Shown here one piece after another: positions 2,344 to 58,274 of a stretch of DNA of 64,000 bases. The notes under the pieces were generated by a model. It did no database searches. It saw only the letters and a program-made list of their open reading frames with translations, and was not told the origin of the DNA. Position 1 is the first letter of the stretch; each line of letters starts with the position of its first letter. The position numbers were made by a program, and so were the translations under genes. The DNA is taken from the NCBI RefSeq assembly GCF_058153355.1, contig NZ_CM177019.1. One strand, written 5' to 3'.

Positions 2344-3443
2344 ATGAAATTTACCGTAGAACGTGAGCATTTATTAAAACCGCTACAACAGGTGAGCGGT
2401 CCGTTAGGTGGTCGTCCTACGCTACCGATTCTCGGTAATCTGCTGTTACAGGTTGCTGACGGTACGTTGTCGCTGACCGGTACCGATCTCGAGATGGAAA
2501 TGGTGGCACGTGTTGCGCTGGTTCAGCCGCACGAACCAGGGGCGACGACCGTTCCGGCGCGCAAATTCTTTGATATCTGCCGTGGTCTGCCTGAAGGCGC
2601 GGAAATTGCCGTGCAACTGGAAGGTGAGCGGATGCTGGTGCGTTCCGGGCGTAGCCGTTTTTCGCTTTCCACCCTGCCAGCAGCAGATTTCCCGAACCTC
2701 GATGACTGGCAGAGCGAAGTCGAATTTACCCTGCCGCAGGCGACGATGAAGCGTCTGATTGAAGCGACTCAGTTTTCGATGGCGCATCAGGATGTTCGCT
2801 ATTACTTAAACGGTATGCTGTTCGAAACCGAAGGTGAAGAACTGCGCACCGTGGCGACCGACGGTCACCGTCTGGCGGTCTGTTCCATGCCAATTGGTCA
2901 GTCTTTGCCAAGCCATTCGGTGATCGTGCCGCGTAAAGGTGTGATTGAACTGATGCGTATGCTCGACGGCGGCGACAATCCGCTGCGCGTGCAAATTGGC
3001 AGCAACAATATACGTGCCCACGTCGGCGACTTTATCTTCACCTCCAAACTGGTGGATGGTCGCTTCCCGGATTACCGCCGTGTTCTGCCGAAGAACCCGG
3101 ACAAACATCTGGAAGCAGGCTGCGATCTGCTCAAGCAGGCGTTTGCCCGTGCGGCGATCCTCTCCAACGAGAAATTCCGCGGCGTGCGTCTGTATGTCAG
3201 CGAAAATCAGCTGAAAATCACCGCCAATAACCCGGAACAGGAAGAAGCGGAAGAGATCCTCGACGTTACCTATAGCGGTGCGGAGATGGAAATTGGCTTC
3301 AACGTCAGCTATGTGCTGGATGTTCTGAACGCGCTGAAATGCGAAAACGTGCGCATGATGCTGACCGATTCGGTTTCCAGTGTGCAGATTGAAGATGCCG
3401 CATCACAGTCGGCTGCCTATGTTGTCATGCCAATGAGACTGTA

Positions 3444-3444: not shown

Positions 3445-6960
<3,516 letters not shown>

Positions 6961-53109: not shown

Positions 53110-55308
53110 ATGTCGACTCCTGACAATCACGGCAAGAAAGCCCCTCAATTTGCCGCGTTCAAACCGCTACCCACGGTTCAGAACGCCAACGACTGTTGCT
53201 GCGACGGCGCATGTTCCAGCACGCCAACGCTCTCTGAAAACGTCTCCGGCACCCGCTATAGCTGGAAAGTCAGCGGCATGGACTGCGCCGCCTGCGCGCG
53301 CAAGGTAGAAAATGCCGTGCGCCAGCTTGCAGGCGTGAATCAGGTGCAGGTGTTGTTCGCCACCGAAAAACTGGTGGTGGATGCCGACAATGACATCCGT
53401 GCCCAGGTTGAATCTGCGGTGCAAAAAGCGGGCTATTCCCTGCGCGATGAACAGTCCGCCGACGAACAACAAGAATCACGCCTGAAAGAGAATCTGCCGC
53501 TGATTACGCTAATCGTGTTGATGGCAATTAGCTGGGGGCTAGAGCAGTTTAATCATCCGTTCGGGCAACTGGCGTTTATCGCGACCACGCTGGTTGGGCT
53601 GTACCCGATTGCTCGTCAGGCATTACGGCTGATCAAATCCGGCAGCTACTTCGCTATTGAAACCTTAATGAGCGTAGCCGCTATTGGTGCGCTGTTTATT
53701 GGCGCAACGGCTGAAGCTGCGATGGTGTTGCTGCTGTTTTTGATTGGTGAACGACTGGAAGGCTGGGCCGCCAGCCGCGCGCGTCAAGGGGTCAGCGCGT
53801 TAATGGCGCTGAAACCGGAAACCGCCACGCGCCTGCGTAATGGCAAGCGTGAAGAGGTAGCAATTAACAGCCTGCGTCCGGGCGATGTTATCGAAGTTGC
53901 GGCAGGTGGGCGTTTACCTGCCGACGGTAAACTGCTCTCGCCCTTTGCCAGTTTTGATGAAAGCGCCCTGACCGGCGAATCCATTCCGGTGGAGCGCGCG
54001 ACGGGTGATAAAGTTCCTGCAGGCGCCACCAGCGTAGACCGTCTGGTAACGCTGGAAGTGCTGTCAGAACCGGGTGCCAGCGCCATTGACCGGATTCTGA
54101 AACTGATCGAAGAAGCCGAAGAGCGCCGCGCGCCCATTGAGCGGTTTATCGACCGTTTCAGCCGTATTTACACGCCAGCGATTATGGCCGTCGCCCTGCT
54201 GGTGACGCTGGTGCCACCGCTGCTGTTTGCCGCAAGCTGGCAGGAGTGGATTTATAAAGGGCTGACGCTGCTGCTGATTGGCTGCCCGTGTGCGCTGGTG
54301 ATCTCAACACCTGCGGCGATCACCTCCGGGCTGGCGGCAGCAGCGCGTCATGGGGCGTTGATTAAAGGCGGTGCGGCGCTGGAACAACTAGGTCGTGTTA
54401 CCCAGGTGGCGTTTGATAAAACCGGCACGCTGACCGTCGGTAAACCGCGCGTTACCGCGATTCATCCGGCAACGGGTATTAGTGAATCTGAACTGCTGAC
54501 ACTGGCAGCGGCGGTCGAGCAAGGCGCGACGCATCCACTGGCGCAAGCCATCGTACGCGAAGCACAGGTTGCTGAACTCGCCATTCCCGCCGCCGAATCA
54601 CAGCGGGCGCTGGTCGGGTCTGGTATTGAAGCACTGATTAACGGTGAGCGCGTGTTGATATGCGCTGCCGGAAAACATCCGGCTGTTGCATTTGCTGGTT
54701 TAATTAACGAACTGGAAAGCGCCGGGCAAACGGTAGTACTGGTGGTGCGTAACGATGAAGTGCTGGGTGTCATTGCATTGCAGGATACCCTGCGCGCCGA
54801 CGCCGCAACTGCCATCAGCGAACTGAGCGCCCTGGGTGTCAAAGGGGTGATCCTCACTGGCGATAATCCACGCGCCGCGGCGGCAATTGCCGGGGAGTTG
54901 GGGCTGGAATTTAAAGCGGGCCTATTACCAGAAGATAAAGTCAAAGCGGTGACCGAGCTGAATCAACATGCGCCTCTGGCGATGGTCGGTGACGGTATTA
55001 ACGACGCGCCAGCGATGAAAGCCGCCACCATTGGGATTGCAATGGGCAGTGGCACAGATGTGGCGCTGGAAACCGCCGATGCAGCATTAACCCATAACCA
55101 CCTGCGCGGCCTGGCGCAGATGATTGAACTGGCACGCGCCACTCACGCCAACATCCGCCAGAACATCACCATTGCGCTGGGGCTGAAAGGGATCTTCCTC
55201 GTCACAACGCTGTTAGGGATGACCGGACTATGGCTGGCGGTGCTGGCAGATACGGGTGCGACGGTGCTGGTGACGGCGAATGCGTTAAGATTGTTGCGCA
55301 GGAAGTAA
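53110..55308 (+). CDS. zntA: Zn/Cd/Pb-exporting P1B-type ATPase
   Basis: 732-aa ORF; N-terminal metal-binding GMDCAAC, CPC in LIGCPCALVIS, DKTGTLT phosphorylation motif. Confidence 0.97.
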   Translation: MSTPDNHGKKAPQFAAFKPLPTVQNANDCCCDGACSSTPTLSENVSGTRYSWKVSGMDCAACARKVENAVRQLAGVNQVQVLFATEKLVVDADNDIRAQVESAVQKAGYSLRDEQSADEQQESRLKENLPLITLIVLMAISWGLEQFNHPFGQLAFIATTLVGLYPIARQALRLIKSGSYFAIETLMSVAAIGALFIGATAEAAMVLLLFLIGERLEGWAASRARQGVSALMALKPETATRLRNGKREEVAINSLRPGDVIEVAAGGRLPADGKLLSPFASFDESALTGESIPVERATGDKVPAGATSVDRLVTLEVLSEPGASAIDRILKLIEEAEERRAPIERFIDRFSRIYTPAIMAVALLVTLVPPLLFAASWQEWIYKGLTLLLIGCPCALVISTPAAITSGLAAAARHGALIKGGAALEQLGRVTQVAFDKTGTLTVGKPRVTAIHPATGISESELLTLAAAVEQGATHPLAQAIVREAQVAELAIPAAESQRALVGSGIEALINGERVLICAAGKHPAVAFAGLINELESAGQTVVLVVRNDEVLGVIALQDTLRADAATAISELSALGVKGVILTGDNPRAAAAIAGELGLEFKAGLLPEDKVKAVTELNQHAPLAMVGDGINDAPAMKAATIGIAMGSGTDVALETADAALTHNHLRGLAQMIELARATHANIRQNITIALGLKGIFLVTTLLGMTGLWLAVLADTGATVLVTANALRLLRRK

Positions 55309-55315
55309 AAGTGTT

Positions 55316-55340
55316 GCCTGATAGCCTCTGGCTATCAGGC
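55316..55340. terminator. Hairpin between zntA and the convergent small ORF
   Basis: gcctgatagcc tct ggctatcaggc; U-rich tract only on the minus-strand side. Confidence 0.55.
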
Positions 55341-55649
55341 TTAGTGCTGGGCCGGGAACGGCGGCATAGTCAGGAAAGCATAATAAAGCGCTAACATCAG
55401 AATGACGGAGATAACACAGCATCCAGCAACCAGGCGGGATGCTATGGATGGCCTTTTGAACATCAACCACAGGGCATAAGCAAGCCCGACACCGTTAAGT
55501 AAAGGTAAAAAAATCATTAGCCAGAGCCAACCCCAGGCAAGTACCCCCAGCCATCCCCCCACGACGATAAAAACAGGGATCAGCCAATTGGGGGTGAAGA
55601 TCGCGAGCAATCCCAGCAATGCCAGACAAACTGGAATTAAATAATCCAT
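55341..55649 (-). CDS. Hypothetical small inner membrane protein (102 aa)
   Basis: ORF MDYLIPVCLALLGLLAIFTPNWLIPVFIVVGGWLGVLAWGWLWLMIFLPLLNGVGLAYALWLMFKRPSIASRLVAGCCVISVILMLALYYAFLTMPPFPAQH; three hydrophobic segments; not a gene I can name. Confidence 0.4.
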   Translation of the reverse strand: MDYLIPVCLALLGLLAIFTPNWLIPVFIVVGGWLGVLAWGWLWLMIFLPLLNGVGLAYALWLMFKRPSIASRLVAGCCVISVILMLALYYAFLTMPPFPAQH

Positions 55650-55673
55650 TTGTGCATTCCATTACGTTTGCGT

Positions 55674-56926
<1,253 letters not shown>

Positions 56927-56956
56927 CATGCCTGCAATCTGGGAAACCGGGGTAGA

Positions 56957-56988
<32 letters not shown>

Positions 56989-57002
56989 AGGGCATTGAAC
57001 TC

Positions 57003-57087
57003 GTAGGCATGATAAGACGCGACAGCGTCGCATCAGGCATTGCGCACCGTATCGCCAGATGCAGCTTGAACGTTTTATCCGTCCTAC
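57003..57087. repeat. REP palindromes right of IS621 (rest of the BIME)
   Basis: gtaggcatgataagacgcgacagcgtcgcatcaggc and gccagatgcagcttgaacgttttatccgtcctac. Confidence 0.65.
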
Positions 57088-57142
57088 AAACCGGTTGCAA
57101 GCCGCAAAATTGAGCGCGATCGGTCCGCTAGCCTGATTCACC

Positions 57143-57388
57143 TTACCCCGATTTGCGAATCAAATAACGATAAGGCAGTCCATCGGTCTCTTTCGCAACC
57201 AGTTCGTGTTCCATAAAGGTACAAAACCCAGGAATATCGCGTGTCGTCGCCGGATCGTCAGCAATAATCAGCAACGTTTCACCTGGCTGCATATTGCGCA
57301 CAGTTTTGCGCACCATCATTACTGGTTCCGGGCAGCGCAGGCCAAGTGCGTCGAGTGTGTGGTCAGGGCTGGAAAAGAGATCGGTCAT
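57143..57388 (-). CDS. tusA: Sulfur carrier protein TusA
   Basis: 81-aa [31 protein letters not shown] with CPxP motif. Confidence 0.95.
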
Positions 57389-57608
57389 TTTCTTCTCATC
57401 ACATAAAAAAACGGCGCTAGTTTACGCCCTGTGAGTCCGTAAGCAAACCAGGTTAACGATTGCGTGAAAATTAACCATTGCATTGTCAACGTAAAGCAGT
57501 ATCATGCGGCGGCTCGAAAAAAGGGTCAGCACGTTATTATGTTAAGGTAACAGACGTGTCGTACGTATTGGGTTCCCTCACCCCAATGGTTAATCAAAAA
57601 GGTACAAT

Positions 57609-58274
57609 ATGAACGTTTTCTCGCAAACTCAACGCTATAAGGCGTTGTTCTGGTTATCGTTATTTCATCTGTTGGTGATCACCTCCAGTAACTATCTGGT
57701 TCAGCTTCCCGTATCCATTTTTGGTTTCCATACCACCTGGGGCGCGTTTAGCTTTCCGTTTATTTTCCTTGCTACCGACCTGACTGTGCGTATTTTTGGC
57801 GCACCGCTGGCCCGTCGTATCATCTTTGCGGTGATGATCCCGGCGTTACTGATCTCCTACGTCATCTCGTCGCTGTTCTATATGGGTTCCTGGCAGGGAT
57901 TCGGCGCGCTCGCCCACTTCAATCTGTTTGTCGCCCGTATCGCCACCGCCAGTTTCATGGCCTACGCGCTGGGGCAAATCCTCGACGTGCACGTTTTTAA
58001 CCGCCTGCGTCAGAGTCGTCGCTGGTGGCTGGCACCGACGGCTTCCACCCTGTTTGGTAACGTCAGCGACACGCTGGCCTTCTTCTTCATTGCCTTCTGG
58101 CGCAGCCCAGATGCCTTTATGGCTGAACACTGGATGGAAATCGCGCTGGTCGATTACTGTTTCAAAGTGTTAATCAGTATCGTTTTCTTCCTGCCAATGT
58201 ATGGCGTATTACTCAATATGCTGTTGAAAAGACTGGCAGATAAATCCGAAATCAACGCTTTGCAGGCGAGTTAA
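57609..58274 (+). CDS. yhhQ: Queuosine precursor transporter
   Basis: 221-aa polytopic membrane ORF. Confidence 0.9.
   Translation: MNVFSQTQRYKALFWLSLFHLLVITSSNYLVQLPVSIFGFHTTWGAFSFPFIFLATDLTVRIFGAPLARRIIFAVMIPALLISYVISSLFYMGSWQGFGALAHFNLFVARIATASFMAYALGQILDVHVFNRLRQSRRWWLAPTASTLFGNVSDTLAFFFIAFWRSPDAFMAEHWMEIALVDYCFKVLISIVFFLPMYGVLLNMLLKRLADKSEINALQAS

Follow-up and report, generated by a model that had tools for sequence, protein, structure and literature searches.

The window, the whole stretch of 64,000 nucleotides that was analysed, contains a minus-strand open reading frame of 102 codons, here termed X, which is surrounded by core housekeeping genes. X is convergent with zntA, and tusA lies upstream of it on the same strand (Table 1). 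Reading upstream from the X start codon, a TGGAATG motif is followed by a REP sequence, which begins 25 nt from the start codon (position 55674), and by an IS621 copy that is inserted in the REP (from 55706). The protein encoded by X (MDYLIPVCLALLGLLAIFTPNWLIPVFIVVGGWLGVLAWGWLWLMIFLPLLNGVGLAYALWLMFKRPSIASRLVAGCCVISVILMLALYYAFLTMPPFPAQH) contains 22 Leu and 6 Trp (5.9%) among its 102 residues and has a GRAVY score of 1.46; its only charged residues are D2, K65, R66 and R72. The preliminary description of this interval as a hydrophobic, Trp-rich ORF, with the left end of a REP/IS621 region as its upstream sequence, was thereby confirmed.

Table 1. Positions of ORF X and the surrounding features in the window.
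Feature	Position	Strand	Remarks
zntA	53110–55308	+	convergent with ORF X
Hairpin, perfect, 11-bp stem and 3-nt loop	55316–55340		between the convergent zntA and X stop codons
ORF X, 102 aa, ATG start	55341–55649	-	ORF listing; RefSeq 'hypothetical protein'
SD-like motif TGGAATG	55655–55661	-	5 nt upstream of the X ATG; GGA core 8 nt upstream
REP, left part, IS621 target	55674–55705		aligned to the empty site in SMS-3-5 (L001 2925–2960); continues at 56985
IS621, 1279 bp, CT on both flanks	55706–56984	+	boundaries relative to the empty site in SMS-3-5
IS621 transposase, 326 aa	55898–56878	+	matches PDB 8wt6 'IS621 transposase', E=4.5e-218
Terminator-like hairpin and T-run in the IS621 right end	56901–56920	-	ACAGCGCCGTCAGGCGCTGT then TTTTTCATCC; 8 pairs, 6 GC
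Rest of the REP/BIME spacer, tusA to X	56985–57142		alignment with other Escherichia loci
tusA	57143–57388	-	upstream of X, same strand; conserved neighbour of every family member

X is already known to RefSeq and UniProt as an uncharacterised 'hypothetical protein' without family assignment. The exact sequence of the window has been deposited (EGO8353314.1), as have other alleles (A0A1M2T030 and A0A066QZ38), and all matches listed carry the annotation 'hypothetical protein'. Literature searches returned no paper on IS621 with tusA and none on three WP accessions of X proteins; a search on tusA together with a small membrane protein retrieved a match on cable bacteria only. The length of X alone is no argument for a gene, because chance ORFs of up to 160 aa occur antisense to zntA in the same ORF listing.

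The hairpin between X and zntA begins 7 nt past the zntA stop codon, finishes at the X stop codon and has a calculated dG of -20.6 kcal/mol. It is followed by AACACTTTTACTT on the minus strand and by TTAGTGCTGG on the plus strand. Each tail contains 4 T; the hairpin was thus unreported by the terminator scan, which requires a GC-rich stem and then a T-run of at least 5 T in 8 nt, despite its strong stem. The hairpin had been described as shared with zntA and U-rich on the side facing the minus strand; the structure itself is real, and the asymmetry holds only weakly since neither tail has the T-run that the scan requires. The hairpin is kept wherever X abuts zntA, with its loop inverted in E. 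whittamii, and it is possibly a weak bidirectional terminator that is canonical on neither strand.

At the other end of X, the Shine-Dalgarno sequence is weak, as the preliminary description had pointed out. By sequence comparison, the GGAATG element is nevertheless conserved across the family: it is invariant ahead of the X ATG in eight Escherichia lineages (ATGGAATG), and shorter homologues of X, described below, have AAGGAATG or AAGGAAGG 6–8 nt ahead of their ATG. Because a GGAATG-type start context is conserved at the same distance, the first ATG of the 102-aa ORF is taken to be the start codon of the family.

In nine diverged Escherichia lineages, E. albertii and E. whittamii among them, the 102-aa X frame is intact and the gene order tusA–ORF–zntA is kept. 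Recorded variants have 99, 102 or 105 aa, and the differences between them are in-frame GLL units. The 72 variable sites among nine sequences are distributed over the three codon positions as 21/15/36 (chi-square p=0.008). Pooled pN/pS is 0.41 for the X frame and 0.74–1.99 for four other frames; an antisense frame with a pN/pS equal to that of X has five stops. Over four phylogenetically independent pairs, omega (dN/dS) of X is 0.31 (binomial p=2.3e-6), and within E. coli the comparison of the window and SMS-3-5 with STN0717 gives 0.11–0.24. The X region is not drifting neutrally, because its dN of 0.06–0.09 falls well short of the dS of 0.2–0.5 that tusA, yhhQ and zntA show between the same genomes. 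The omega of X is 5–10 times that of these three genes (0.00–0.08). As predicted from this genome comparison, ORF X is very probably a real protein-coding gene.

At synonymous sites, X has diverged only about half as much as tusA, yhhQ and zntA when the same genome pairs are compared. [quoted passage not shown] A 55-aa ORF in an alternative frame (MECTNGLFNSS..., 55495–55662, minus strand) overlaps X and is open in several Escherichia species, and gene callers take it as the start of frameshifted X alleles. It was rejected as a real gene on its pN/pS of 1.46.

More distant relatives of X were found beside tusA in other genera. A profile search (hmmsearch) of 1.84 billion representative proteins produced nine matches, two of which are distant: P0039, an 83-aa protein from a metagenome (E=1.1e-5), and P0042, an 84-aa protein of Huaxiibacter chinensis (E=9.7e-4). 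A third distant relative, P0043, was also recovered. The three proteins are 83–86 aa long, share 33–40% identity with X and are encoded in Huaxiibacter and on enterobacterial contigs. Alignment of the X profile to these short forms by hhalign gave a probability of 98.3% and E=1.8e-14 over residues 44–102 only. The E-values of P0039 and P0042 are marginal for hydrophobic proteins, and genomic context was taken as deciding; homology of all three was accepted because each is encoded directly 3' of tusA. They lie on the same strand as tusA, 35–49 nt from its stop codon and within a yhhQ-tusA neighbourhood (loci L011, L012–L015 and L016). In Huaxiibacter, dctPQM lies between the X homologue and zntA, and the X homologue still adjoins tusA. 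On this comparison of loci, the conserved partner of X is tusA and not zntA.

Six residues (N52, G55, R72, S81, M85 and L88) are invariant across the family. None of the invariant positions is a cysteine; at position 78, some alleles have Cys and others Ser. P0039 ends in FPAQH, like Escherichia X, and is likely an orthologue of X because its locus, L011, shares an orphan gene of 162/165 aa with E. albertii. This orphan ORF of 162–165 aa separates X from zntA and has the same orientation as zntA (L004 3869–4366 in E. albertii; L006; L011 688–1176), and its copies in E. albertii and in the metagenomic L011 are 64% identical. It is absent from the window and has no match in Pfam, NCBIfam or PADLOC.

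These homologues also bear on whether X is a gene at all. X could be a chance ORF in a conserved non-coding spacer, such as a zntA 3' region or an antisense RNA; its weak Shine-Dalgarno sequence, the lack of any promoter found or of a terminator called by the scans, and a dS below that of its neighbours would all fit. Hydrophobic ORFs arise easily, moreover, and the overlapping 55-aa frame is open too. However, the excess of third-position changes and the omega of 0.31 are specific to the X frame, the overlapping alternative frame shows no such constraint by pN/pS, Rfam gave no match, and the proteins encoded 3' of tusA in other genera retain 33–40% identity where the DNA can no longer be aligned. 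We regard a non-coding origin as very improbable. The doubt in the preliminary description, that X may not be a real gene, is countered by the frame kept intact in nine Escherichia lineages, its omega and the tusA-adjoining homologues, and the search for homologues with a conserved reading frame recovered those nine lineages together with the three distant proteins.

X has a patchy distribution. Its DNA was found, each time as one copy on the chromosome, in 317 of 5426 complete E. coli genomes, and the alleles fall into identity bands of about 99%, 97.7%, 92% and 90%. In a survey of one genome per GTDB species, X was found in five further Escherichia species only, E. albertii and E. whittamii among them, each time as an intact 102-aa frame between tusA and zntA. 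Some alleles of E. marmotae, E. albertii and E. coli carry a frameshift or a truncation. X is missing at the locus in Klebsiella, Pluralibacter, Pseudocitrobacter and a further enterobacterial contig. Searches for remnants by tblastn gave noise-level matches only in K-12, GPEC1258, Klebsiella, Pluralibacter, Pseudocitrobacter and a JGI contig. As judged from these genomes, the X family is small and patchily distributed.

In K-12, the zntA-tusA spacer is 101 bp long and lies entirely without X, in line with the earlier remark that no named K-12 gene lies there; a G-rich repeat is found in its place, and this repeat is listed as an 'HPGQ' of the zntA-tusA interval in PMC5100583. Across E. coli, the K-12-type junction occurs in 4568 of the 5426 complete genomes, and X is deleted in at least that many. 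Strain GPEC1258 has an intermediate state in which X is deleted and the BIME is kept. Since this state differs from the K-12 type, at least two different deletions of X have occurred. Deletion from at least 4568 of the 5426 E. coli genomes, together with the lack of X in Klebsiella, Pluralibacter, Pseudocitrobacter and the further enterobacterial contig, means that any function of X would be dispensable.

Two further features of these loci were recorded. The deletion alleles of K-12 (L002 2651–2751) and GPEC1258 (L017 1322–1589) carry the G-rich boxC/'HPGQ' repeat by tusA, which is missing from X-bearing alleles, and GPEC1258 keeps the BIME and a fragment of the hairpin arm (GGCTATCAG). Escherichia strain SCPM-O-B-8794 (L005) has two family members in tandem: a 102-aa ORF at 3501–3809 and, directly 3' of tusA, a short-form copy at 3054–3328 (MKYAMPVFLALVSWL...) with a frameshift at a T-run near 3190. 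The TusA C-terminus of this strain differs (…VRKMH), which suggests a recombined segment.

The AlphaFold2 model of X, built from a 13-sequence alignment, is all-helical with a pLDDT of 76.7. Its helices span residues 4–18, 24–65 and 69–94. The preliminary description had proposed three hydrophobic helices, and three helices are indeed modelled; the middle one, however, comprises 42 residues, enough for about two spans, and in the model the hydrophobic stretch is better accommodated by four membrane spans than by three. Escherichia X would probably adopt an N-out/C-out topology with four spans, placing the basic cluster of K65, R66 and R72 in the cytoplasm.

The short forms, whose first residues are MK or MR, contain three hydrophobic segments; Escherichia X begins with MD and is about 20 residues longer. 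Residues 2–17 of X (DYLIPVCLALLGLLAI) resemble residues 21–36 (NWLIPVFIVVGGWLGV), with a BLOSUM62 score of 30 compared with 17.5±3.5 for shuffled sequences (12 of 2000 shuffles reach 30), and the two segments match the short-form N-terminus about equally well. The sequences thus lend moderate support to an internal duplication of the first span as the source of the extra ~20 residues. The ancestral form of X would be a protein of 83–86 aa with three spans.

The constraint on X is unevenly distributed, which raises the question of where the protein starts. Codons 45–102 have an omega of 0.25 (p=1.5e-6); codons 1–44 have an omega of 0.51 (p=0.15), so that constraint on this part is not significant alone. 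The product could in principle be limited to residues 45–102, a two-span core translated from Met45 and preceded by a variable leader of 44 codons. A 58-aa form annotated in E. albertii (P0031) starts at exactly this methionine, frameshifted alleles regain the frame before residue 45 and so keep the core, and the hhalign match to the short forms is confined to residues 44–102. By contrast, intact alleles vary hardly at all in the N-terminal sequence MDYLIPVCLxLLG, which is similar to the short-form N-termini (BLOSUM scores of 46–48), indels in the first span are in frame, and the conserved initiation element is the first ATG in its GGAATG context. A product restricted to the core is hence judged improbable, and the full-length 102-aa protein is the form considered below.

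X matches no described family in the resources searched. Pfam has no family for X at E<=1, PHROGs and PADLOC returned no match, and neither did a sequence-profile search of the PDB. A Foldseek comparison of the AlphaFold2 model with the PDB gave generic helical hairpins with a best E of 1.2. Rfam had no match in positions 55200–57500, and NCBIfam had none for the short-form homologues. For X itself, the sole NCBIfam match is NF009243 (MnhF/PhaF), which covers 47 residues at 16.4 bits and E=0.011, where the cut-off is 95 bits. MnhF/PhaF of the Na+/H+ antiporters are small hydrophobic proteins of about 90 aa with three transmembrane spans and are similar in kind to X. The assignment as an antiporter subunit was rejected on the score below the cut-off and on the lack of an mnh operon context, and the match looks like a compositional likeness of hydrophobic helices.

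Three other classes of small membrane protein were considered and rejected. A type I toxin would be shorter than X and have fewer spans. A holin was dismissed because X lacks a charged C-terminal tail, is not set in a prophage and has no match in PHROGs, and an anti-phage defence component because there is no PADLOC match and the context is one of housekeeping genes.

X was also compared with two known arrangements. TusA-like proteins are paired with membrane proteins in YeeD/YeeE (TsuB/TsuA, thiosulfate uptake) and in YedF/YedE; YeeE and YedE are about 330–400 aa long and belong to a defined Pfam family. The X locus is similar in that a TusA-family gene adjoins a same-strand gene for a polytopic membrane protein. 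Unlike YeeE and YedE, X and its relatives have 83–102 aa, no Pfam match and no invariant cysteine. X was accordingly rejected as a YeeE/YedE-type transporter partner of TusA, there being no Pfam match at E<=1 and a length of 102 aa as opposed to >300 aa. The second comparison is with KdpF, MgtS, AcrZ and CydX, the small accessory inner-membrane proteins of KdpABC, MgtA, AcrB and CydAB in E. coli. These are single-span proteins of fewer than 50 aa that are often missed or left unnamed in annotation. X resembles them in being small, very hydrophobic, dispensable and encoded next to, or in an operon with, a larger or unrelated partner, but it differs in having three to four spans and 83–102 aa and in lacking sequence or fold similarity to them. 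The neighbour of X, moreover, is the soluble sulfur carrier TusA and not the P-type ATPase ZntA, in contrast to these systems. Judged by sequence, X is a predicted small, unnamed inner-membrane protein of an undescribed, narrowly distributed family.

The element upstream of X was identified as IS621 of the IS110 family by its transposase, its length of 1279 bp, its REP target and the CT core on both flanks. Its junction in the window occurs in 0 of 5426 complete E. coli genomes, so that the insertion at this REP appears to be private to the strain or rare. At the gathering threshold, Rfam 15 had no match in 55200–57500, including positions 55706–55897 upstream of the transposase. The tusA-X spacer measures 136–450 bp and holds REP/BIME copies in every Escherichia lineage. 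REP/BIME elements in operons and the insertion of IS621 into REPs are known systems that match the context of X, and not X itself.

This arrangement bears on how X would be expressed. In every locus covered by the promoter scan, the interval from tusA to X yielded no promoter-like site. Because of this, and because an ancestral spacer of 35–49 nt is too short for a promoter, X would be translated from a tusA-X transcript. In the proposed sequence of events, X was presumably the second, distal cistron of such a transcript, and REP/BIME elements would later have inserted between the two genes in Escherichia. BIMEs within operons typically lower the expression of the distal gene. In the window, the spacer is longer by the 1279 bp of IS621, which also brings in a terminator-like hairpin facing tusA that would stop read-through; X is for this reason probably poorly expressed or silent in the window strain. 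The earlier suggestion that the insertion may have changed X expression is thus plausible, given that the spacer offers no promoter-like site and that the terminator-like hairpin lies on the minus strand. Overall, we consider it fairly probable that X is a genuine gene for a small, extremely hydrophobic inner-membrane protein, that it was once the distal cistron of tusA-X, and that it is now probably under-expressed or silent in the window strain.

Part of the same evidence would fit a decaying remnant, in which a gene that formerly adjoined tusA is now an unexpressed relic in E. coli, notably in the window strain, and is heading for deletion. About 94% of complete E. coli genomes lack X, at least two different deletions having removed it, damaged alleles with frameshifts and truncations are found, and the constraint on X is relaxed in comparison with the neighbouring genes. 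REP/BIME elements and IS621 with its terminator-like hairpin also stand between X and its presumed promoter. A neutral sequence, however, would have gained stops or frameshifts over a dS of 0.2–0.5, and the X frame has stayed intact from E. albertii to E. coli with an omega of 0.31 (p=2.3e-6), and of 0.11–0.24 within E. coli. A relic is considered unlikely, although the window's own copy, which only a private IS621 insertion would silence, may be one.

As to its role, X may be a non-essential accessory small membrane protein that acts on or with a larger partner, although this is a guess. The association with TusA is the sole recurring clue. A link of X with ZntA is less likely than one with TusA, because in Huaxiibacter dctPQM parts X from zntA and X stays by tusA. 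A functional link between X and TusA is itself doubtful. It is also improbable, on present comparisons, that X and its 83–86-aa relatives constitute a new polytopic family working with TusA, either by recruiting it to the membrane or by moving a sulfur or selenium compound or a metal. Were this the case, a membrane branch of the TusA sulfur relay would have disappeared from most E. coli, K-12 included.

What is new here is the evidence of purifying selection on X and of a small family whose members, X included, sit 3' of tusA. Since K-12 has no X, the gene has been missed by every small-protein, Ribo-seq or knockout survey based on that strain. X is a concrete candidate accessory membrane protein that can be put to the test. 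It also illustrates the loss of a genus-level gene in the model strain, and the IS621 insertion in the window provides a natural 'uncoupled' allele that can be compared with intact strains. The payoff is likely to be modest, given that X is dispensable and sporadic and offers no functional handle.

The region is mosaic relative to SMS-3-5. The 3' 903 bp of zntA (53110–55308) have a dS of 0.19, while ORF X, tusA and yhhQ (55341–58274) have a dS of 0.013–0.036. This contrast points to recombination, with a breakpoint close to the hairpin that separates zntA from X.
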